A DNA stretch of 64,000 nt from a bacterium (lineage in GTDB: Bacteria > UBP14 > UBA6098 > B30-G16): positions 5,718 to 69,717 of the forward strand of contig JAUWMV010000010.1 in assembly GCA_030613005.1 (NCBI GenBank), written 5' to 3'. The translations under genes were made by a program, and so were the position numbers. Each line of letters starts with the position of its first letter. The stretch's first letter is position 1. The notes beneath the pieces are model-generated. The model saw nothing but the letters and a program-made list of their open reading frames with translations, had not been told where the DNA came from and searched no databases. Below are positions 2,107-61,955 of this stretch, in pieces.

Positions 2107-2847
2107 TTAAACACCTAATCGCAATCTATGCGCCAGAAATGGAGGAAGACCTGAAGATAATATTTTTCTCTGCGCTTTCTCTATATCATAATCAAACCGG
2201 CAAAAAATTAAGTAGCGTGTTTCTGAATCGAAAACTGTAAAACTTCCTCTTGGGTCTCCATCCCTTGGCTGGCCGACACTTCCCACATTTACAATATACC
2301 TTTTATTCTTTGCAAGCCTGTAACTGAAGGAATTTCCCTCATATGGAATTATAACATCGATCTGTTCACCAGACTCGCAAAAAATCGCTGGAACGTGAGA
2401 ATGCCCAATAAAACAAACATCAGTAGTGAAATACTTAAAATTTCCAATAGCATCGTCGTATTTAAGAATATAATCCCACAATTCAGGAGATTTAGGCGTT
2501 GAATGAACAGCAAAAAAATTCCCACCGTCATATTGTAATGGTAATCTTACTAAAAACATTTTATCCGTTTGCCTGAGAACACTCTTTGTCCATAATATTG
2601 CAGCTTTTGCTAAGTTGTTAAAATAGTTGATGTTAGTCATATCGATAGCGGCTGAGTCATGGTTCCCCAATAGCGAGATGTCAAATTCTTTTTCGGCAAT
2701 TTCGATACATTCTGAAGGATTTGCACCGTATCCAACAATATCACCAAGGAAAAGAATTTTATCTACTTCCTGAACTGAAATACAATTTAGAGCAGTTTCA
2801 AGCGCTTCTAAATTCGAATGAATATCGGACAATATTGATAATTTCAT
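2107..2847 (-). CDS. Calcineurin-like metallophosphoesterase (YfcE/MPP family)
   Basis: N-terminal LSDIHSN and GDIVGYG, plus GNHD motifs typical of the metallophosphatase fold. 4-nt overlap with upstream nusB suggests an operon. Confidence 0.75.
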   Translation of the reverse strand: MKLSILSDIHSNLEALETALNCISVQEVDKILFLGDIVGYGANPSECIEIAEKEFDISLLGNHDSAAIDMTNINYFNNLAKAAILWTKSVLRQTDKMFLVRLPLQYDGGNFFAVHSTPKSPELWDYILKYDDAIGNFKYFTTDVCFIGHSHVPAIFCESGEQIDVIIPYEGNSFSYRLAKNKRYIVNVGSVGQPRDGDPRGSFTVFDSETRYLIFCRFDYDIEKAQRKILSSGLPPFLAHRLRLGV

Positions 2848-3311
2848 TCCAAACTTCTTATAGTTAATCCTTCTTCAACAAGCTTCCTAAAAACCGTATC
2901 AAGAATACCATTAATAAATCTCGGACTATCTGCACTGCCAAATTCTTTCGCAAGCTCCAAAGCCTCATCGATTATCACTGCTAGAGAAGTTTCCTCAAAA
3001 TCCATAAACTCGGCTATACCTAATTGAAGGATGTTTCTATCAACAACTGAAATTCTCTCAAGTTCCCAGTTCTCTGTAACGTTTTGGATAAATTTATCGG
3101 CAAGACTTCTACGATCGATCGCAGATATAATGAGCTTCCTGAGAAAATCAACTGGTACCTTTGATGATAGTTCCTCATATTTCAAAACAATCTGTATAAG
3201 TTCCTCTGTGTCCGACTCACCCTTAACCATATGAACATAAATTGCTTGAAAGGCACATTTACGTGCAATATGACGTGGAAATTCCCTTTTGATACGTGTA
3301 GTTTTATCCAT
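2844..3311 (-). CDS. nusB: Transcription antitermination factor NusB
   Basis: 155 aa. Pattern RKCAFQAIYVHMV...DRNILQLGIAEF...ALELAKEFG resembles the NusB family. Confidence 0.8.
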   Translation of the reverse strand: MDKTTRIKREFPRHIARKCAFQAIYVHMVKGESDTEELIQIVLKYEELSSKVPVDFLRKLIISAIDRRSLADKFIQNVTENWELERISVVDRNILQLGIAEFMDFEETSLAVIIDEALELAKEFGSADSPRFINGILDTVFRKLVEEGLTIRSLE

Positions 3312-3312
3312 A

Positions 3313-4911
3313 CTATTTCAAACCGTATTGCTTTTCATCAAACTCCAAGACAGTAAATACATAGATTTCGGTTTCAGATTTTTTATAGCAATCTCTTTCT
3401 AACATGGCTTTCTGGGAACAAAGCTCGGACAGAAATTCATCTCTATTGTTGAAATGTTCCCAAACCTGTGGCAAGAAAACACCTGTTCTATATCCTCTCT
3501 TAATATAAACCCCATGCTTATCGGGAACTACATCCTCGAAGGAATTAACTTTTCTCATCGGAGATAGAACAGATATCTCGATATCTACTTCGTCAATCTG
3601 TTTTGATGGAACCGGAGAAAATCTGGGATCTCTTGTTGCTGCGGAAATTGCCATATCTCTTACAGCAAGATATAGCGGTTCCTGAGCAATCATCTGACCG
3701 ATACAACCTCTCAACATCCCCTTTCTATGTAAAGTAACAAAAACAGGAGTATCCTCGATAAGCTTGGATTCGGAAGGTTTTGGGGGTTCATATTTTCTAC
3801 CATTGATAATATATTCTTCAATCGTTTTTCGAGCTAATTTTAACAAATATTTTTTCTGATCGTGAGTTAACGAATATTCATCACTTTCTGAATTACTACT
3901 CATTTTATAATTTCCATTTCGGACGAAAACAACTGAACAATATCCAACAACCCCCCGCGATTTGCTTTCGGGCGATGTATCTCCAGAATTTGCGTATCGA
4001 AGTAAAATCGGTTTATCCCACCCAAGCGATTCGGAAACAGCCATGCCAGTGATAACCGGTCCCCAACCGCAAAATGCATCATTACCACTCATCATCCACT
4101 TTTTCAATCCATCGATATCGTTCTTGAGAACATAATCGAGGGTCTTTTTATCGATTTTCATTGCTTCTTCATACGAGTGATAATGACTCATATCTGTAGA
4201 GAGGACGATTATTGTTCTGTCCCAATTAATATTTGAAGTTACTAATGCATTAATCAGAGTCTCAACTACTGCCATGCCTTGCTGAGCAAACGATATTGGC
4301 AACAATTTGAAATCGTTGTCCAAAGCAAATTGTAAAAATGGTATTTCAAGTTCAAGTGAATGTTCTCGATCAAAAATCTCCCTTTTAAAACGAAGAATAT
4401 CGGGATTATAAGACATAACTTTCCTTGCGAGCACCGAATCTACTTCTACACTTCCAAGCGGTGTTCTCCATTCTCCTTTTTCCCAAACCGACAGACCATA
4501 CCACGGTGGACTTCTATGAGCAAAGCCAATTAAAATGACTGTATTGCCTTTATACATTTCTTTATTCATCTTCAATGCCTTAAAACCATAAGCCGCAACC
4601 GGACCGGAAAATATATAACCCGCATGGGGAGAAATTAGTATCTGAATGCGTCCTTCAATAGGTTTTACCGAAGCAGCACCGAAGAAATTATTCAGCATAT
4701 TTTTCAATTCCAATGGGTTGCTTGGATACCACGATCCAGCAAATTGTGCAGACCTAATTATTTGCATGTTTCCCCCCTTACTCTCGCCCATGCTATTAGC
4801 CTTACTTTTATTTGTCTTCCCCTTGCTCTCTCCCGATGAAACACAACCTAAAAGCAACGCAAAAACTAACATTATTGATAATGATCTCACTTTTAATAAA
4901 CCTTGAAACAT
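3313..4911 (-). CDS. Fused Memo-like (AmmeMemoRadiSam system protein B) + AMMECR1 (system protein A) with N-terminal lipoprotein-type signal peptide
   Basis: Memo motifs ISPHAGYIFSGP and LSTDMSHYHS in the N-terminal half. AMMECR1 motif GMLRGCIGQM in the C-terminal ~180 aa. Signal sequence IMLVFALLLGC is followed by a Ser/Gly/Lys-rich linker. A GGGAGGGG Shine-Dalgarno lies upstream of the ATG at 4911. Confidence 0.8.
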   Translation of the reverse strand: MFQGLLKVRSLSIMLVFALLLGCVSSGESKGKTNKSKANSMGESKGGNMQIIRSAQFAGSWYPSNPLELKNMLNNFFGAASVKPIEGRIQILISPHAGYIFSGPVAAYGFKALKMNKEMYKGNTVILIGFAHRSPPWYGLSVWEKGEWRTPLGSVEVDSVLARKVMSYNPDILRFKREIFDREHSLELEIPFLQFALDNDFKLLPISFAQQGMAVVETLINALVTSNINWDRTIIVLSTDMSHYHSYEEAMKIDKKTLDYVLKNDIDGLKKWMMSGNDAFCGWGPVITGMAVSESLGWDKPILLRYANSGDTSPESKSRGVVGYCSVVFVRNGNYKMSSNSESDEYSLTHDQKKYLLKLARKTIEEYIINGRKYEPPKPSESKLIEDTPVFVTLHRKGMLRGCIGQMIAQEPLYLAVRDMAISAATRDPRFSPVPSKQIDEVDIEISVLSPMRKVNSFEDVVPDKHGVYIKRGYRTGVFLPQVWEHFNNRDEFLSELCSQKAMLERDCYKKSETEIYVFTVLEFDEKQYGLK

Positions 4912-5160
4912 ATCCCCTCCCTAAAATTCTCATTTCCTTATCCTAATAATATTTAGGATAGTATATATTCGCAACATGTTTGGATTATAGAACAATAAAT
5001 AAACAATATGTATTTGTCCATGAAAGATTCAAAATTCCGACTTTTTTTCTGGATTATTGAATTATTTTTTTTAGAAGTTTTGGATTGCCTGATAATCAAC
5101 CAATGTTATTATATTTCCATAACATTAAATAATGCAAAGTGTCAAAATTTATGAAACCTT

Positions 5161-5200
5161 TCTATAATAAAAAGCCTCCAATAAGGAGGCTTTGTTTTTG
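5161..5200 (-). terminator. Rho-independent terminator hairpin (AAGCCTCC-AATAA-GGAGGCTT) downstream of the 5221..7377 gene; U-run on the minus strand, also a T-run on the plus strand
   Basis: Perfect 8-bp GC-rich stem with 5-nt loop at 5172-5192, flanked by T-rich runs on both strands. Confidence 0.55.
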
Positions 5201-5220: not shown

Positions 5221-7377
5221 TTACTTTACCAAAATCAAAGATTTTCTCACAGTTTCGTTCGGTGTTGATAGGACAGCAAAATAAGTACCACTTGGTTGAT
5301 ATTTTGCATTCCAAATAAGAGTGTGCTTACCAGAAGGCAATACATCTTGAATAAGAACTTTAACTTTTCTGCCTGTGGCGTCGAATATTGTCAGATCGAC
5401 ATGAGTCTCGTTGGGAAGAACGAAATCGATCTCTGTGGATGCATTAAAGGGATTTGGATAATTGTCTAAAATCTCTAATTTTGTTGGAACCATATTTTTC
5501 AAATTGGTGGTCTTCGCTAACATTACCTCCACAATCGCTTTGTAGACATGTATTCCCTGAAACATATCAACGGAGAAAATGTAATTTCCAAATCCAGTAA
5601 GCTGAGTCCAATAGCCGTTTTTCGGCATATCAGCTACCATTTTTAGAGTTGGCAAACTGCTTATATCGAAAACTTTCAATTGACCGGGACCATCTGCAAC
5701 ATATGCATAATCCCCAAATATTCGAACATCCATTCCCCATACAGATGGATATGTGGACACAAGCCTTAACTTTTCTGGATTGCTGATGTCGATCACTGAA
5801 ACACCACTTTGTCCATCCGCAGCGATAATATATTTTCCCACAATCTCGAATCCATTGCCACCAGTTTGACTTGTATGAATGTATCCTATTTCAGCAGGAA
5901 ATTCTTTGGATAGGTCAAAAACATGGTATCCACCTAGAAAGTCCGAAGCGTAAAGAAGATCACCATCGAAATGAATATCGTAAAACTGTGCACTGTAGTC
6001 CTTTAATATAAACGAGGTATATATGTGACCTGCATTAAGAGGCATCAATGCTATCCCATCTTTTCCTAATGACACAGCGCAAAAATCGTTCCCGAATTCA
6101 ATTCTCCCAATTTTATCTGGTCCTCTTGCTGTGGATATTACGGGAATTTCATCGAAAGCACTGAGATTTTTGGGGCTTGCAACAACCATAAACACATCCT
6201 CTTTGATGCTGCTTCTGGCGCCCAGGATATAAAGAAGACCATTGTAAATCTGAACATCCCAAACAATTGTCAGATCCACGCCATAAACATTTCCAATTTT
6301 CAAAGGTCGCTCTGGATCTGATATGTCGTATACAAGAACACCCGATCGTCCTGCAGCAATGTATAAAACGTTGTCATAAATGCATATTCTTTTCGGAGTA
6401 TCATAGGTTTCTACATGACCAATTTCCATAGGTGCTCGGAAATTTGTAACATCAAACACATGAATTCCCATATGATCATTTGCTAAATAAATATCTTCAT
6501 CAACCTTTCCAAAATCCAATGTAGGCATGCCATCCAAATTCCATACTAAAACAGGATCACCTTCAATGAGCTCATAGATAGCAAAGTTCTTATATCCACC
6601 GGCATAAACGATTCCATCAAAAATTTGAACGGTCATCGGTGTAAGAAAAGGTATATTGAAAAGTCGTCTGCCAAAAATTTTCTTTTCGTTAGGTTTTTCA
6701 GCATCCCAGCGACCGTAAATAATAATGTTATTATGAAGCTGAAGCGATGTATATGTTCCCGGTTGATGCCCTAAAAGGAAAAATCTATTTTCCCTCGATA
6801 ATCCCACAACATAAATTCCCTTATTACCATTGGCTACATACAATCTGTTTTTAAACCAATCCATGCAAAGAGGTTTTCCATCGATATTAGCACGTGTTAA
6901 TAAACTGGGTGCATTTAAATCGGAGATATCTATCAAAGCCAAATATCCTTTTCCAGCCAGAAATAACCTGTTTTCATCAATTTCGAATGTAGAAAAATTG
7001 GTAAATACTGGATCCTTAAATTCAGGGAATTCGCCGAGAAGCAAAGGTTCATACGGTCTGGTTACATCAAATATTTCCAAACCTTCCTTTTCCCAAAGCA
7101 CAAAAAGTTTGTCTCCAACAACCTCCATCTTAACAATGGTGCTCGAATGACCTTTAACATCAGAAATAAGCTGTGGAAAATCTCGATTGAAAACGTTATA
7201 AATTCTAACAACACCACTCACACCGGCATACACCACTTCTCCATCGGATGTCATTGCTTGCACTCTACCCATAGGTATTTCAGCAACTTCCTCTAACTGA
7301 ACTGGACTACTTAATGCCAGAGAAGTTGCTAATAAAAATCCACATATCAAAGCTACACATTTTAGACCTTTCATCAT
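5221..7377 (-). CDS. Secreted LVIVD-repeat beta-propeller protein with T9SS C-terminal sorting domain
   Basis: Signal peptide. Recurring V(F/Y)D(I/V)S(D/N)P..P motifs characteristic of LVIVD repeats. C-terminal ~80 aa (NPFNASTEIDF...GTYFAVLS...LILVK) matches the T9SS/Por CTD pattern. Confidence 0.7.
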   Translation of the reverse strand: MMKGLKCVALICGFLLATSLALSSPVQLEEVAEIPMGRVQAMTSDGEVVYAGVSGVVRIYNVFNRDFPQLISDVKGHSSTIVKMEVVGDKLFVLWEKEGLEIFDVTRPYEPLLLGEFPEFKDPVFTNFSTFEIDENRLFLAGKGYLALIDISDLNAPSLLTRANIDGKPLCMDWFKNRLYVANGNKGIYVVGLSRENRFFLLGHQPGTYTSLQLHNNIIIYGRWDAEKPNEKKIFGRRLFNIPFLTPMTVQIFDGIVYAGGYKNFAIYELIEGDPVLVWNLDGMPTLDFGKVDEDIYLANDHMGIHVFDVTNFRAPMEIGHVETYDTPKRICIYDNVLYIAAGRSGVLVYDISDPERPLKIGNVYGVDLTIVWDVQIYNGLLYILGARSSIKEDVFMVVASPKNLSAFDEIPVISTARGPDKIGRIEFGNDFCAVSLGKDGIALMPLNAGHIYTSFILKDYSAQFYDIHFDGDLLYASDFLGGYHVFDLSKEFPAEIGYIHTSQTGGNGFEIVGKYIIAADGQSGVSVIDISNPEKLRLVSTYPSVWGMDVRIFGDYAYVADGPGQLKVFDISSLPTLKMVADMPKNGYWTQLTGFGNYIFSVDMFQGIHVYKAIVEVMLAKTTNLKNMVPTKLEILDNYPNPFNASTEIDFVLPNETHVDLTIFDATGRKVKVLIQDVLPSGKHTLIWNAKYQPSGTYFAVLSTPNETVRKSLILVK

Positions 7378-8991: not shown

Positions 8992-11958
8992 CTATTTGGG
9001 TTTAATTTGCAAAAACCCATTACCAATCGATAATATCCAATAGCCGATACTTGGTTCAATAGCATCCGGTTCTACGACAATATAAAGCTTCGACTCACAA
9101 TCCCATCGGAAAATACTCGATGGAACAATAAGGTCCGGTGGTTCAGTAGTGAATTCAGCGGGTCCATTGATTGCACCTACAAGGTTCCAACCTTTAACAA
9201 TAGGAATAATTGTTTCATTTACTGGAACACCACCAATTGTAATAGATTTATCTGCAGTAGAATAAATCCAGAAACCCTGACCTGCCTGCGTTCGTGAAAC
9301 GATATAGAAATTTCTTAGAACAGGATTATAAGCGAACGGTCCAGCGAAGATTTCATCAAAGCTTTCTGTCCAATTAGGCATATTTATTACAACTGGCGAA
9401 GAAAGAAGGTTCCAACCATTACATAGATCAAGATATGTTGCACCCGGTTCAGGTTGCGAGTATTCAATAACAAGATTTTCATTAGCGGAATAGAAATAAA
9501 TCGAATCTTCTCTCATATCGATATAGTTATTAAGAGTAAAAATACCGTCGGGCCAAAGTCTGGGATCCCAATATAGCGAACCAGGATTTTCGACTGTCAT
9601 TACAATCCATGTGCTTGGTATAGAGCTTATATTTCTTAAATCCCTTTCTAATCTTGTAATATGAGGATAGAGAGGATCATCGATCCAAATATAAACTTCG
9701 GTCAACTCAGGTGTCGTTGGTGATGAAAATATATCCATTAATGGATCATAACCATCTGTAGCTGAATAGTTGCAACCTATTGTCATTACATTCCTATCGA
9801 GATATCCTCCAGTAGGATCGAAACCATGGAAAATAAGATGCTGCATCCATGAAACTGTATTCCATCTTACAAAAATTGTAGCATCGTCGGAGTAATATCC
9901 TACTGTCCCATCGAGCAGTATCGCTGTGTCGATAAGCATTGGAGTGAAGGAAGCACCGGGAGCACTATTATTTATTAGAAGTTCAATGTCGATGAATTTA
10001 ATGTTCCGTAACATTGGGGTTATATTATTGCCGTCGATAAGCAAATAACCACTTCTTGAAGCATCAAAGTTTACTGTAAAACCATCTGCAGCTGTGCCAT
10101 CTGTTTTAACATCGAGAACCGAGACGATTTCAGGATTAAATTTTATTCCAATTGAGAAATCTGTAATAGAGAATCTAAACGGATCATCGCAATATAATGA
10201 GTACTTTACAGTAGTTCCAGGTTCCAAGGTCGTATCTCTAAAGTATAAGTAAAGATTGTCGACGAAGAAATTCCAGCATATATTAGATTCATTAGGACCA
10301 CAGTAATCATTCGTAACATTGTCCGCAGCGTAAACACACACATTGATCGTGTCACCCTTACCCCAGTTGTAGATACCGATCGGATGTAAACTAAATTCTC
10401 CATCCTCAAAAGTTACTGCTGGATCATCGATTCCATACTCATCGTCATTAACAGTCATTTTAATGCTTGAATTATCCAATCCTGATAGTAGATCGCTTAT
10501 ATTAACTGAAATAATTTCGGGCACTGAACCAAGTATTATGTTATCGAGTGGATAAACATTTTCAAGTATCGGTGGATCAAGGTCGAGCCTAAACCAATTA
10601 GTTATAGGAGCAGATAATGTACAACCACCTAAATCGTAAACATCGAGCAAACCATAATCGATTCTTTCTCCTGAGAAGAACTGCCCAGAATCGGGAGTGA
10701 AAGTTAAAATGCTGTCCTCGAATTCTAATCGCGGATCGGTGTTTGGGTCATAAATTTCACCGTCAACAGCAAATTCAATCGTTGATACATTAATACCTGC
10801 ATCATCATCTATTAATGCAATTCGAATTTCCTGAGGATCGCAGCCGCTCCAGACTCCAGTCTCAGGCCATATATTGTGAGCTTCAACAGGGGAACAGGCA
10901 CAATTTGGAATATACATGCATCCAGCACCTCGAACACTATGCATTGCAGATGAGGCATCAATTGTGAAGCACCCTTCTGCACCAATGCAACCCTGGGTGT
11001 AGTTTATCCTCCATACAAAATGTGCAGTATCTCCCGGTAAGATACTATCGCTTAGAACAGGATTTTGACCTCGTAATATCCTAATGCAAAATCCGGTCGA
11101 TAAATATGAAGCAATTCTTTGCTTGTATGGTGTGTTGTTTGCAACGTAACCTTCGATAAGCTGGAATATACCCAGTTTATCGAGCATGGAGTTATAAATT
11201 GATGAAAAACTTGTACCAAGCCGGAACCATTGTCCACCAGTGCTCTCCGCAACAGACCTATACCATTCTTCACAATAACCGTGTGGAAGCCTCATACAAT
11301 GAGTAGTATAAAGGGATGAACCTGTTACTGTAAATAGCATAAATGCACCATCCATAAGCTTATGCATTATCGTATCAGGATTTACACCTGATGTGCAATA
11401 CTCGGCACAGATTGAAGAATCCACACAGAATGGAGCATCGGTAAGAAGAATAATAACTCTCAATGCTCCAGATCTCCAGTGAATTGAGTCCATAGCTGCA
11501 TTTATCGCATCTAATGCCATCTCAGGTCCGTCGTCACCCTCTCCTGAACCTATTGGAGCCATCCAAGAATGAAATGTATCGATATTAGTCGTACAATCAT
11601 ACCCATGTGGAAAATTTTGCCCGTCGCCATAAGTAACAACATTCAAAGCATAATCGTAACCTGTAGCCTCCATAGTGTCAGCGAACTCCCTAATATTTGC
11701 CACTGCACCGACAATGTATCTGTACATGCTGCCCGTTGTATCGAGTACGAATACGATATCTACATTACCTGTATCCTGAGTACAGGTGATATCGAGTCTA
11801 AAGAATCCTGAATCCGAGAGCTCAAATGGATGAGTTATGCCCTTTCGGATTAGGTTAATTCCAATGATATCCAGCCCATAGTTATCTGGTGGATTATCCT
11901 TAGCGGTTACCATTGAAATAATTAATACGGGTAAAATCAACCATACCAATTTCCTCAC
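8992..11958 (-). CDS. Large secreted von Willebrand factor A (vWA) domain protein
   Basis: Signal peptide. MIDAS-like DIVFVLDTTGSM near the N-terminus. 988 aa Cys-rich extracellular-type composition. No clear T9SS CTD. Confidence 0.6.
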   Translation of the reverse strand: MRKLVWLILPVLIISMVTAKDNPPDNYGLDIIGINLIRKGITHPFELSDSGFFRLDITCTQDTGNVDIVFVLDTTGSMYRYIVGAVANIREFADTMEATGYDYALNVVTYGDGQNFPHGYDCTTNIDTFHSWMAPIGSGEGDDGPEMALDAINAAMDSIHWRSGALRVIILLTDAPFCVDSSICAEYCTSGVNPDTIMHKLMDGAFMLFTVTGSSLYTTHCMRLPHGYCEEWYRSVAESTGGQWFRLGTSFSSIYNSMLDKLGIFQLIEGYVANNTPYKQRIASYLSTGFCIRILRGQNPVLSDSILPGDTAHFVWRINYTQGCIGAEGCFTIDASSAMHSVRGAGCMYIPNCACSPVEAHNIWPETGVWSGCDPQEIRIALIDDDAGINVSTIEFAVDGEIYDPNTDPRLEFEDSILTFTPDSGQFFSGERIDYGLLDVYDLGGCTLSAPITNWFRLDLDPPILENVYPLDNIILGSVPEIISVNISDLLSGLDNSSIKMTVNDDEYGIDDPAVTFEDGEFSLHPIGIYNWGKGDTINVCVYAADNVTNDYCGPNESNICWNFFVDNLYLYFRDTTLEPGTTVKYSLYCDDPFRFSITDFSIGIKFNPEIVSVLDVKTDGTAADGFTVNFDASRSGYLLIDGNNITPMLRNIKFIDIELLINNSAPGASFTPMLIDTAILLDGTVGYYSDDATIFVRWNTVSWMQHLIFHGFDPTGGYLDRNVMTIGCNYSATDGYDPLMDIFSSPTTPELTEVYIWIDDPLYPHITRLERDLRNISSIPSTWIVMTVENPGSLYWDPRLWPDGIFTLNNYIDMREDSIYFYSANENLVIEYSQPEPGATYLDLCNGWNLLSSPVVINMPNWTESFDEIFAGPFAYNPVLRNFYIVSRTQAGQGFWIYSTADKSITIGGVPVNETIIPIVKGWNLVGAINGPAEFTTEPPDLIVPSSIFRWDCESKLYIVVEPDAIEPSIGYWILSIGNGFLQIKPK

Positions 11959-44331: not shown

Positions 44332-44403
44332 AGGCGGCGATCGGACTTGAACCGATGAATCGAGGCTTTGCAGGCCTCTGCCTTACCGCTTGGCTACGCC
44401 GCC
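44332..44403 (-). tRNA. tRNA-Cys (GCA)
   Basis: Reverse complement folds as a cloverleaf: acceptor GGCGGCG/CGCCGCC, anticodon loop CUGCAAA, T-arm GGTTCAAGTCC, U73 discriminator. No encoded CCA. Confidence 0.85.
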
Positions 44404-44550: not shown

Positions 44551-44623
44551 AGCGGGAGACGGGGTTTGAACCCGCGACAACCACCTTGGCAAGGTGGCGC
44601 TCTACCACCTGAGCTACTCCCGC
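44551..44623 (-). tRNA. tRNA-Gly (GCC)
   Basis: Reverse complement GCGGGAGTAGCTCAGGTGGTAGAGCGCCACCTTGCCAAGGTGG...GGTTCAAACCCCGTCTCCCGCT. Anticodon GCC. Confidence 0.85.
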
Positions 44624-60905: not shown

Positions 60906-61955
60906 TTATTTAGGTTCCAATTCCTCTTCCCTAAAAGTTTTAAGCGGAAGTTCCTCTTCCCAATCTCTCCCGGACTTGTATTCGAAAATCGATTGAACAT
61001 TCTCGGATATCCATTTGAAAATTTGTCCAACGATAATGTCCTCTGGGCAGGCTTCCTCGCAAGCACCACACGCAACACAACTAGTAGCCATATGAGCCAT
61101 TCGTCCTATGTGGAAAAGCATAACATCGGTAGGCGCTCTAAGTCCACCTTTGCGAGAAGCCAGATCAAGGAATACATCACCCTCGAAATCCATTGCGTCC
61201 GACTCGAAAAAGCACTCTTTGCAAATACAAATCGGGCAATTGGTCATACAATTATGGCAATTAATGCAATGAGCAAATGTTTTAAAAATATTATCTGTTC
61301 CGCTGCACTCGGACTTTAAGTTCTCATATAATGCTGTCTTCGCTTTAAGCTTCATATCCATAACAGACTTCAAGCCCTCATCTGGTGCGGACTCAACGAA
61401 TTGAACTCCCAATTTTTCGAGGAAATTTTTCCCAGTCTCAGTTTGTGCAATAATAGGAGTGTCCTTCTCGAAGGTCAGGTAACTGAAATCCGCAGTTTCA
61501 GAGCGTATATAATCACAACTCTTGCATATCTCTCGAAGTTCAAATTTTCCATCCGAAGCTGATTTAATAAATTCCTGCGATTTAGGTATTTCTTTATCTT
61601 TCAAGTCCTTTCTGGCGATTGTTCCATAGCAATCAAACGTTGCATATATAATATTTTTGTTTTGTATTTGAACTAATTTAACTAGTTCGACGACAGCACG
61701 CATCTCGCACGGTTTAAGTATTGCTAATATAGGTTTATTGGGAGGAGCTACTTTGGTAATTCTTTTTATGAAATTAGCACAATTATCAGGGAAATAAGGA
61801 ATCATTGAATCCACATCTTCCAACATCTCCGGATCGGTAATCAATGCATGAACCGCTGCATCGGGAGCAGTTCTCTTAAGTGTAATCACTCCTCCGATAA
61901 TTCCGTCTTTTAGTGCTTTTTTACTAAGTTCTGTCAAAACATCGTTTGTGACCAT
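60906..61955 (-). CDS. FrhB/FdhB-like coenzyme F420 hydrogenase/dehydrogenase beta-subunit family protein with 2x[4Fe-4S] ferredoxin motifs
   Basis: CINCHNCMTNCP and CVACGACEEACP cluster motifs. N-terminal FrhB_N-like region. GGGGAGG Shine-Dalgarno before the ATG at 61955. Confidence 0.6.
   Translation of the reverse strand: MVTNDVLTELSKKALKDGIIGGVITLKRTAPDAAVHALITDPEMLEDVDSMIPYFPDNCANFIKRITKVAPPNKPILAILKPCEMRAVVELVKLVQIQNKNIIYATFDCYGTIARKDLKDKEIPKSQEFIKSASDGKFELREICKSCDYIRSETADFSYLTFEKDTPIIAQTETGKNFLEKLGVQFVESAPDEGLKSVMDMKLKAKTALYENLKSECSGTDNIFKTFAHCINCHNCMTNCPICICKECFFESDAMDFEGDVFLDLASRKGGLRAPTDVMLFHIGRMAHMATSCVACGACEEACPEDIIVGQIFKWISENVQSIFEYKSGRDWEEELPLKTFREEELEPK

Follow-up and report, generated by a model that had tools for sequence, protein, structure and literature searches.

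Export signals on a Memo–AMMECR1 fusion and on the radical SAM partners of its relatives suggest a possible extracytoplasmic branch of the AmmeMemoRadiSam system

What is a Memo–AMMECR1 fusion doing behind a lipoprotein signal peptide, and has it parted from its radical S-adenosylmethionine (SAM) enzyme? The question is raised by a gene in a 64,000-nucleotide (nt) stretch of bacterial DNA from contig JAUWMV010000010.1 (hereafter the window), whose open reading frame (ORF; 3313..4911, minus strand) encodes 532 residues comprising a signal peptide, a linker, a Memo domain (AmmeMemoRadiSam protein B) and an AMMECR1 domain (AmmeMemoRadiSam protein A). Conservation of Memo and AMMECR1 extends from archaea to humans, and both have been linked to human disease. 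The explanation that we favour overall, with somewhat better than even confidence, is that this gene is a B–A fusion of an exported branch of the AmmeMemoRadiSam system, with a lipoprotein long form and a probable cytoplasmic short form. The fusion itself was already known; what appears to be new are export signals on the radical SAM partners of related fusions, which match those of the fusions, and a conserved dual start. The window gene is an ordinary member of its branch and is of interest mainly for the pattern that it revealed across the family.

The identity of the two halves is clear from profile and structure comparisons. The Memo half (residues 55-327; 3931..4749, minus strand) matches Pfam Memo PF01875 with E=7.7e-54 (183 bits against a cutoff of 27) and NCBIfam TIGR04336, the protein B family, over residues 53-329, with a score of 234.4 bits (cutoff 26) and the whole model aligned (positions 1-270 of 270). 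The AMMECR1 half (residues 357-523; 3343..3843, minus strand) matches Pfam PF01871 with E=5.1e-49 and NCBIfam TIGR04335, the protein A family, over residues 355-524 with 180.6 bits (cutoff 99). In an AlphaFold model computed from 60 homologues (mean predicted local distance difference test score, pLDDT, of 90.8), a helix at residues 3-21 is followed by a disordered segment at 25-46 (pLDDT<50), then by the Memo domain and, after a brief disordered hinge at 335-343, by the AMMECR1 domain. In Foldseek comparisons, the Memo half superposes on human MEMO1 (3bcz) with a TM-score of 0.82, which places it in the LigB/Memo fold, and the AMMECR1 half on an archaeal AMMECR1 (1vaj) with a TM-score of 0.81; the same structure comparison returned no solved structure of a fused Memo–AMMECR1 protein. 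A sequence-only reading of the window had placed both domains in one polypeptide, and Pfam, NCBIfam and Foldseek bear this out. The protein P0122, recovered from NCBI and Logan contigs, is identical to the window fusion.

Residues H96, H132, D240, H243 and C281 of the Memo half are invariant in the alignment of 60 homologues. The first four align to MEMO1 H49, H81, D189 and H192, and C281 is matched to C244 by motif only; we take these MEMO1 residues to be those of its metal site. In the AMMECR1 half, RGCIG (R401-G402-C403-I404-G405) and DxRF (D428, R430, F431) are invariant in the same alignment, the family motifs having been defined as RGChG and DxRa (PMC2034487), and all of the catalytic motifs (PHAG, DxxH and CG; RGCIG and DxRF) are intact in the window fusion. 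Because the metal-site equivalents and the AMMECR1 motifs are invariant, both halves look catalytically intact.

The N-terminus has the layout of a lipoprotein. Lipoprotein signal peptides end in a lipobox of the type [LVI][ASTVI][GAS]C (PROSITE PS51257), with the cysteine at positions 15-35. The fusion begins with MFQGLLKVRSLSIMLVFALLLG followed by C, with K7 and R9, a 12-residue uncharged stretch (10-21) and then L-L-G-C ending in Cys23, so that by sequence rule its n-region has K/R, its h-region is uncharged and its lipobox cysteine lies within the expected positions. On the minus strand, the signal peptide (residues 1-22; n-region K7/R9, h-region S10-L21) occupies 4846..4911, the lipobox L20-L21-G22-C23, read from the sequence, 4843..4854 (Cys23 codon TGT at 4843-4845), and a flexible Ser/Gly/Lys-rich linker (residues 24-48) 4768..4842. 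The signal-peptide call combines this rule with conservation in homologues: the closest relatives, at 54-62% identity, retain canonical lipoboxes ([LF]xGC, then A/V-K/R-S), conserved lipoboxes occur in P0003-P0012, L001, L002 and L087, and the first 50 residues are conserved like the rest of the protein, with only 2 changed in relatives at 92-96% identity. Met1 (ATG at 4909-4911) is preceded by the Shine-Dalgarno site AGGGAGGGG (4914..4922, minus strand), whose duplex with the anti-Shine-Dalgarno sequence is worth -12.3 kcal/mol, where half of the gene starts in the window lie at -8 kcal/mol or lower. The signal peptide, lipobox and Ser/Gly/Lys-rich linker described in the sequence-only reading are therefore real features. 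They make the window fusion very likely exported and lipid-anchored, and it is with considerable confidence that we take its long form to be truly exported.

A 16-nt direct repeat at 4774-4789 and 4819-4834 (minus strand) marks an in-frame 45-nt duplication by which the linker sequence GESKG is encoded twice; the repeat duplicates GESKG(K/G) together with the Shine-Dalgarno-like AAGGGG. At 25 residues, the window linker is two to three times the length of those of its relatives.

Fusions of this kind are widespread. A protein search gave 6663 matches at E<=1e-10, and the best 120 of these 6663 are nearly all Memo+AMMECR1 fusions of 465-547 residues, some named 'protein B/protein A' by JGI. A phyletic survey, which the sequence-only reading had proposed, was made by scanning GTDB with one genome per species and found at least 597 fusion loci, distributed over Omnitrophota, Elusimicrobiota, WOR-3, Acidobacteriota, Bacteroidota, Desulfobacterota, Nitrospirota, Latescibacterota, Calditrichota, Verrucomicrobiota, Ignavibacteria, Planctomycetota and others. 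Fusions of AMMECR1 with the dioxygenase had, moreover, been reported long ago (Balaji and Aravind, 2007; PMC2034487). The idea that a Memo/AMMECR1 fusion is unusual does not hold; it is not rare.

Nor is the export signal special to the window gene. Of the top homologues, 118 have a Memo start that can be recognised; a hydrophobic N-terminal extension is present in 105 of these 118, and 35 of these extensions carry a lipobox. More distant, Omnitrophota-type homologues have type-I-like signals (for example, ...SFA followed by AEVKEADLAGSWYP). When the N-termini of related genome loci were re-derived by six-frame translation, independently of gene callers, 62 of ~79 loci were signal-bearing, about a dozen had no signal and one (L009) was a triple fusion. 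The predicted export signal is thus a trait of the family and not a peculiarity of the window gene.

Some individual loci deserve mention. In a close relative, L085 (438-560), the lipobox cysteine is replaced by tyrosine (LLLFVGYAKS, against LLLVGCAKS in P0008) and the NCBI gene starts at the internal methionine; lipidation may have been lost recently, or the sequence may contain an error. L054 has two tandem Memo–AMMECR1 fusion ORFs in one genome (2611-4317 and 4119-5837), which may be paralogues or an assembly effect. The triple fusion at L009 (8942-11386) is a single ORF of 815 residues that joins the radical SAM, Memo and AMMECR1 domains, all three components of the system, in one polypeptide without a signal peptide; L074 (8803-11445) may be a similar triple fusion, or one with a frameshift.

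The flanks (±10 kb) of 80 related genome loci were examined for the radical SAM component, TIGR04337, with a profile built from 10 ORFs adjoining homologous fusions, each verified with NCBIfam; 44 of the 80 have such a gene. Unexpectedly, the TIGR04337 proteins beside signal-bearing fusions have N-terminal extensions ahead of the core, many with a twin-arginine consensus (SRREFLKK). Such signals are found at L017 (8839-9969) and also at L019, L020, L021, L023, L027, L034, L042, L060, L072 and L078. In L017 (MEGITRREFIKKAAVVGAGLG), L072 (SRRDFFKKTAQYG), L042 (SRRNFLRNSAGY) and L019 (ERRYFLKCALVSGAAL) the motif is followed by an Ala/Gly-rich uncharged stretch; MEGITRREFIKKAAVVGAGLGVSVIAADY is a further example of such a leader, and TRREFIKK, SRRDFFKK and SRRNFLR also occur ahead of the radical SAM core. 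The proteins from Bacteroidota (L018, L037-L039, L043, L046, L052, L055, L069, L076, L080) carry a KR[ED]F[LI]K variant, and those from Omnitrophota have Sec-, anchor- or lipobox-like segments (MKNLLKLILGLFFLFGLIAAC...).

For counting, a radical SAM N-terminus was scored by the presence of K/R followed by at least 12 uncharged residues, a rule that replaced one based on hydrophobicity, which missed RR motifs before Ala/Gly-rich regions. By this rule, extensions are positive in 25 of 36 enzymes beside signal-bearing fusions and in 0 of 6 beside cytoplasmic ones (Fisher p=0.0024, a statistic that ignores relatedness). Among 120 homologues of the L017 enzyme (P0128-P0247), N-termini are signal-like in 111; 56 of the 120 have an RR/KR motif by rule, most of them reading [ST]RREF[IL]KK by eye, and the database names of these homologues make no mention of an N-terminal signal. 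Because the signals on the radical SAM enzymes accompany signal-bearing fusions and not cytoplasmic ones, the AmmeMemoRadiSam system seems to exist in cytoplasmic and extracytoplasmic versions. A twin-arginine translocation (Tat) signal on the iron-sulfur (Fe-S) enzyme together with a Sec-type signal on the fusion is the pattern expected if export is real. A report of a Tat-exported radical SAM enzyme was not found in those parts of the literature that our search reached.

The window gene itself has no such partner beside it. The TIGR04337 profile has no match in the window, and among window ORFs of at least 100 residues the CxxxCxxC motif occurs only once, in a ferredoxin-type protein at 60906-61955; this protein, of 349 residues, ends in a 4Fe-4S dicluster (ferredoxin-type) domain and so does not count as a radical SAM enzyme. 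Since the fusion gene lies only 3.3 kb from the left edge of the window, we also examined L088, the same locus in another assembly, which encodes an identical protein and reaches past that edge, and the profile has no match there either. There is accordingly no TIGR04337 gene in ~8.6 kb on one side and 59 kb on the other side of the fusion (~68 kb in total), and the adjacency of the three components is seen neither in the window nor in L088. The sequence-only reading was right that the flanking genes are nusB (2844-3311) and an LVIVD-type cargo of a type IX secretion system (T9SS; 5221-7377), with no radical SAM gene nearby. Two interpretations of this fact fare less well: with a TIGR04337 gene in 44 of 80 related loci and none in the rest, a missing neighbour is hardly notable and does not imply that the genome lacks the partner, and export does not signify uncoupling from the radical SAM enzyme. 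Among signal-bearing loci, TIGR04337 lies within 4 kb in 37 and is absent from the flank in 26, and the adjoining genes are often signal-bearing themselves. With so many signal-bearing fusions adjoining TIGR04337, an export signal is not the mark of a lost enzyme.

The fusion in the window's own clade might nevertheless work without a radical SAM enzyme, its partner having been lost, as Memo and AMMECR1 do in eukaryotes. Besides the window and L088, the clade members with full flanks (L001, L002, L024, L029, L035, L086, L087) have no TIGR04337 gene within ±10 kb, and in the class of fusions with an internal Shine-Dalgarno site, discussed below, a radical SAM gene is adjacent only in L017 and L048. 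The absence in the window's own genome, however, concerns only ~68 kb of it, and its species is not among the one-per-species representatives of the genome scan (best match 54% identity); scattered system genes are common, and the NCBIfam scores put both domains firmly in radical SAM-linked families. The class pattern is confounded by phylogeny, and we conclude nothing from it because most of the class is one clade. We consider the loss of the partner a real contender that falls a little short of even, and a partner encoded elsewhere in the window's genome to be an evenly balanced proposition.

In several Omnitrophota loci (L004, L006, L008, L013, L016, L028), a second CxxxCxxC ORF lies a few genes (1.3-2.8 kb) downstream of the fusion. 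The one in L004 is a MiaB-like UPF0004–Radical_SAM–TRAM gene, and the recurrence of the ORF is probably a matter of lineage synteny.

The window gene has, in addition, a second candidate start. The Shine-Dalgarno-like AAGGGGGGA and an in-frame ATG encoding Met49 (4765..4779, minus strand; ATG at 4765-4767) lie at the end of the linker, with the AGSWYP motif following nine codons later. A methionine 7-9 residues ahead of AGSWYP is almost invariant in the lipobox-bearing clade, and its position is that at which the signal-less relatives start (MSDIRKPAM..., MDRKPAL...). The site before Met49 scores -11.7 kcal/mol against the anti-Shine-Dalgarno sequence, where none of 264 control in-frame ATGs in the window reaches -11 kcal/mol and only 2 of 264 reach -8 kcal/mol. 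Family-wide, 12 of 21 such methionines have a site at or below -8 kcal/mol, whereas of the control ATGs that these genes contain, 16 of 532 do (p=4.6e-12). The residues before the internal methionine vary by lineage (SSEEVG, VEEGNN, ETKEVK, CKGRSE, SSKGGS, ESKGGN), and despite these differences the DNA keeps a GGAGG-like core throughout. NCBI annotation begins P0013 and P0017 at this methionine, with a signal-like ORF running on upstream. The gene thus has a second in-frame start with a ribosome-binding site of its own, conserved in relatives and as strong as that of Met1, and the caution of the sequence-only reading, that the true start might be an internal methionine, was well placed. This arrangement suggests a lipoprotein isoform and a cytoplasmic isoform from one gene; in our reading, the signal peptide was added upstream of an ancestral start that was retained. 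That Met49 is also used in the window gene we would put at even chances.

A gene that makes only the lipoprotein, its internal site not being a start, is an unlikely alternative that nonetheless explains some of these observations. The site could have arisen as a by-product of a Gly/Glu/Lys-rich linker, survive as a relic of the ancestral start or act as a Shine-Dalgarno-like pause that lets the signal peptide reach the export machinery in time. Codons for G, E and K are purine-rich, and the amino acids explain much of the signal: when the six codons before the internal methionine were resampled synonymously, the combined p was 0.005 and that of the window gene 0.22, which is weak support for selection on the DNA because the amino acids largely fix its purine-rich character. 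Folding predictions for the mRNA of 12 genes do not regularly leave the region of the internal ATG open (percentiles 0.26-0.99), and many Omnitrophota-type signal-bearing relatives do without any internal methionine. These results count against a second functional start. On the other side, a pause site needs no ATG, and a linker by-product accounts poorly for a methionine that hardly varies across the lipobox clade and stands where signal-less relatives begin, for a site at or below -8 kcal/mol in 12 of 21 genes, for GGAGG-like DNA kept under residues that differ by lineage, and for a strength equalled by none of the 264 internal ATGs in the window. The converse, that Met49 is the true start of a purely cytoplasmic protein and the upstream 'signal peptide' has no functional product, could appeal to the strong Shine-Dalgarno site there, to the NCBI starts of P0013, P0017, P0024 and P0025 at the equivalent methionine and to the Cys-to-Tyr change in L085, but it is very improbable given an upstream frame open in every relative, a K/R, hydrophobic and lipobox pattern in dozens of lineages at 40-60% identity (beyond what chance or non-coding DNA would leave), an equally strong Shine-Dalgarno site at Met1, first 50 residues conserved in near relatives and partner radical SAM genes with matching export signals.

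An exported fusion with two forms therefore remains our preferred reading, and it would work as follows. The window gene, as a member of the large branch of AmmeMemoRadiSam B–A fusions with export signals, would be a two-domain enzyme with a Memo-type metal site and an AMMECR1 catalytic cysteine. Initiation at Met1 would give a prolipoprotein, exported by Sec, lipidated at Cys23 and cleaved by signal peptidase II, and the flexible linker of ~25 residues would then tether the long form to the membrane, facing the periplasm. The second Shine-Dalgarno site and the ATG at codon 49 would probably yield a cytoplasmic isoform too. Because adjacent TIGR04337 partners carry twin-arginine or other export or anchor signals, the pathway may act on an envelope- or membrane-associated substrate and not on cytoplasmic RNA, with a polyprenyl-type lipid as the leading guess.

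Several observations weigh against this reading of the exported branch. The N-termini of 10 radical SAM proteins score below threshold with Pfam TAT_signal (PF10518; best E=0.012, 16 bits against 22.7), for which reason the Tat assignment is motif-based. In L032, L040 and L045 a signal-bearing fusion is accompanied by a signal-less radical SAM gene. There is also a biochemical problem, in that we know of no source of SAM or reductant for a periplasmic radical SAM enzyme. Sec export is moreover hard to reconcile with Fe-S cluster insertion, and some Omnitrophota-type partners look like Sec-exported or anchored proteins. Finally, the gene for a UbiA prenyltransferase, which would fit the guess about the substrate, is associated with the fusion in only three lineages: it follows the fusion in L002 and L086, is nearby in L087 and is also recorded for L002/L003, and a tblastn search found it neither in the window nor in the other loci. 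In L001, genes for a Lip_A_acyltrans protein and a PMT_2 glycosyltransferase follow the operon. Burroughs et al. (2019, JBC), in a study that is said also to treat the AmmeMemoRadiSam system, reportedly proposed an isoprenoid link in their abstract. The UbiA, lipid A and PMT_2 neighbours would suit such a link, but they are a hint and not a rule, too sporadic to prove it.

The broader proposal, that many bacteria run the AmmeMemoRadiSam system extracytoplasmically, with a radical SAM enzyme that leaves the cell already folded by way of Tat and a fusion that passes through Sec, either soluble or as a lipoprotein, and that the window's clade adds a cytoplasmic copy so that one gene serves two compartments, we hold to be rather less likely than not. 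If it is true, the substrate would be an envelope or membrane molecule, which argues against RNA for the exported branch, and there would be radical SAM chemistry in the periplasm. Twin-arginine radical SAM enzymes would challenge the assumption that the superfamily is confined to the cytoplasm. The signals on most of the sampled bacterial fusions and on their radical SAM partners would leave the cell envelope as the place in which to seek a substrate, and the conserved second start would be a simple case of one bacterial gene giving a lipoprotein and a cytoplasmic form.

The genomic context of the window gene (G+C of the window, 36.8%) is that of a short operon among secreted proteins. On the minus strand, nusB (2844..3311) starts 1 nt after the fusion stop, and the third operon gene, for a metallophosphoesterase (2107..2847), shares 4 nt with the end of nusB. 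DNA was available for five relatives at 54-60% identity (L001, L005, L085, L087, L088), and all five have the order fusion–nusB–metallophosphoesterase, which no other locus shows. A terminator-like hairpin (5171..5193, minus strand; from a consensus scan only) stands after the upstream gene, which encodes an LVIVD protein with a Por_Secre_tail (5221-7377), and this suggests that the fusion gene heads its own transcription unit; a promoter scan upstream of the fusion was not informative (17 sites against 12.4 ± 3.9 expected). Large secreted proteins surround the operon: the LVIVD + Por_Secre_tail protein, a VWA-domain protein and, downstream, three InhA-like MAM + Por_Secre_tail proteins, with genes at 1-2030 (running off the left edge), 5221-7377 and 8992-11958 of the window and at 4031-11285 of L088, where nusB, the metallophosphoesterase and then the three T9SS-tailed proteins lie downstream of the fusion. 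From the Por_Secre_tail proteins around the operon it follows that the window organism has a type IX secretion system. The only Rfam matches at gathering level in the window are tRNA-Cys(GCA) (44332-44403) and tRNA-Gly(GCC) (44551-44623), both on the minus strand.

How does the fusion compare with systems already described? In-frame internal initiation is known to give N-terminal proteoforms in bacteria, such as the long and short forms of CheA and SpaO (PMC13515050), which likewise have two in-frame starts in one gene, each with its own Shine-Dalgarno site. The N-terminal difference in the window fusion would change localisation, and a pair of lipoprotein and cytoplasmic isoforms of a metabolic enzyme was not among the examples found in that review. 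The archaeal AMMECR1 proteins PH0010 (1vaj) and MM0484 (1zq7) show 35-38% identity, superpose with TM-scores of 0.72-0.81 and have the same RGCIG cysteine cleft, but are stand-alone cytoplasmic proteins. Human MEMO1 (3bcz, 7l5c, 7kq8) has the fold of the window Memo domain (TM-score 0.82, root-mean-square deviation 2.6 Å) and shares its metal residues, at only 19% identity; it is stand-alone and cytosolic, without a signal peptide, a fused AMMECR1 or a radical SAM partner.

The AmmeMemoRadiSam system (TIGR04335/TIGR04336/TIGR04337) is the one to which the window gene belongs. It is named only in passing in the literature searched, where we found no description of an extracytoplasmic branch, Burroughs et al. 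(2019) not being covered by that search. Balaji and Aravind (2007; PMC2034487) reported that genes for a radical SAM enzyme and for a ring-opening dioxygenase (Memo) neighbour AMMECR1 and proposed a role in RNA base modification, a cytoplasmic prediction at odds with an exported protein. The domains of the window fusion score far above the family cutoffs with their catalytic motifs intact, and its B-then-A order is common to thousands of database proteins. It departs from the system in having no radical SAM gene within ~68 kb, and in what it appears to add, a lipoprotein signal peptide, an operon with nusB and a second conserved start.

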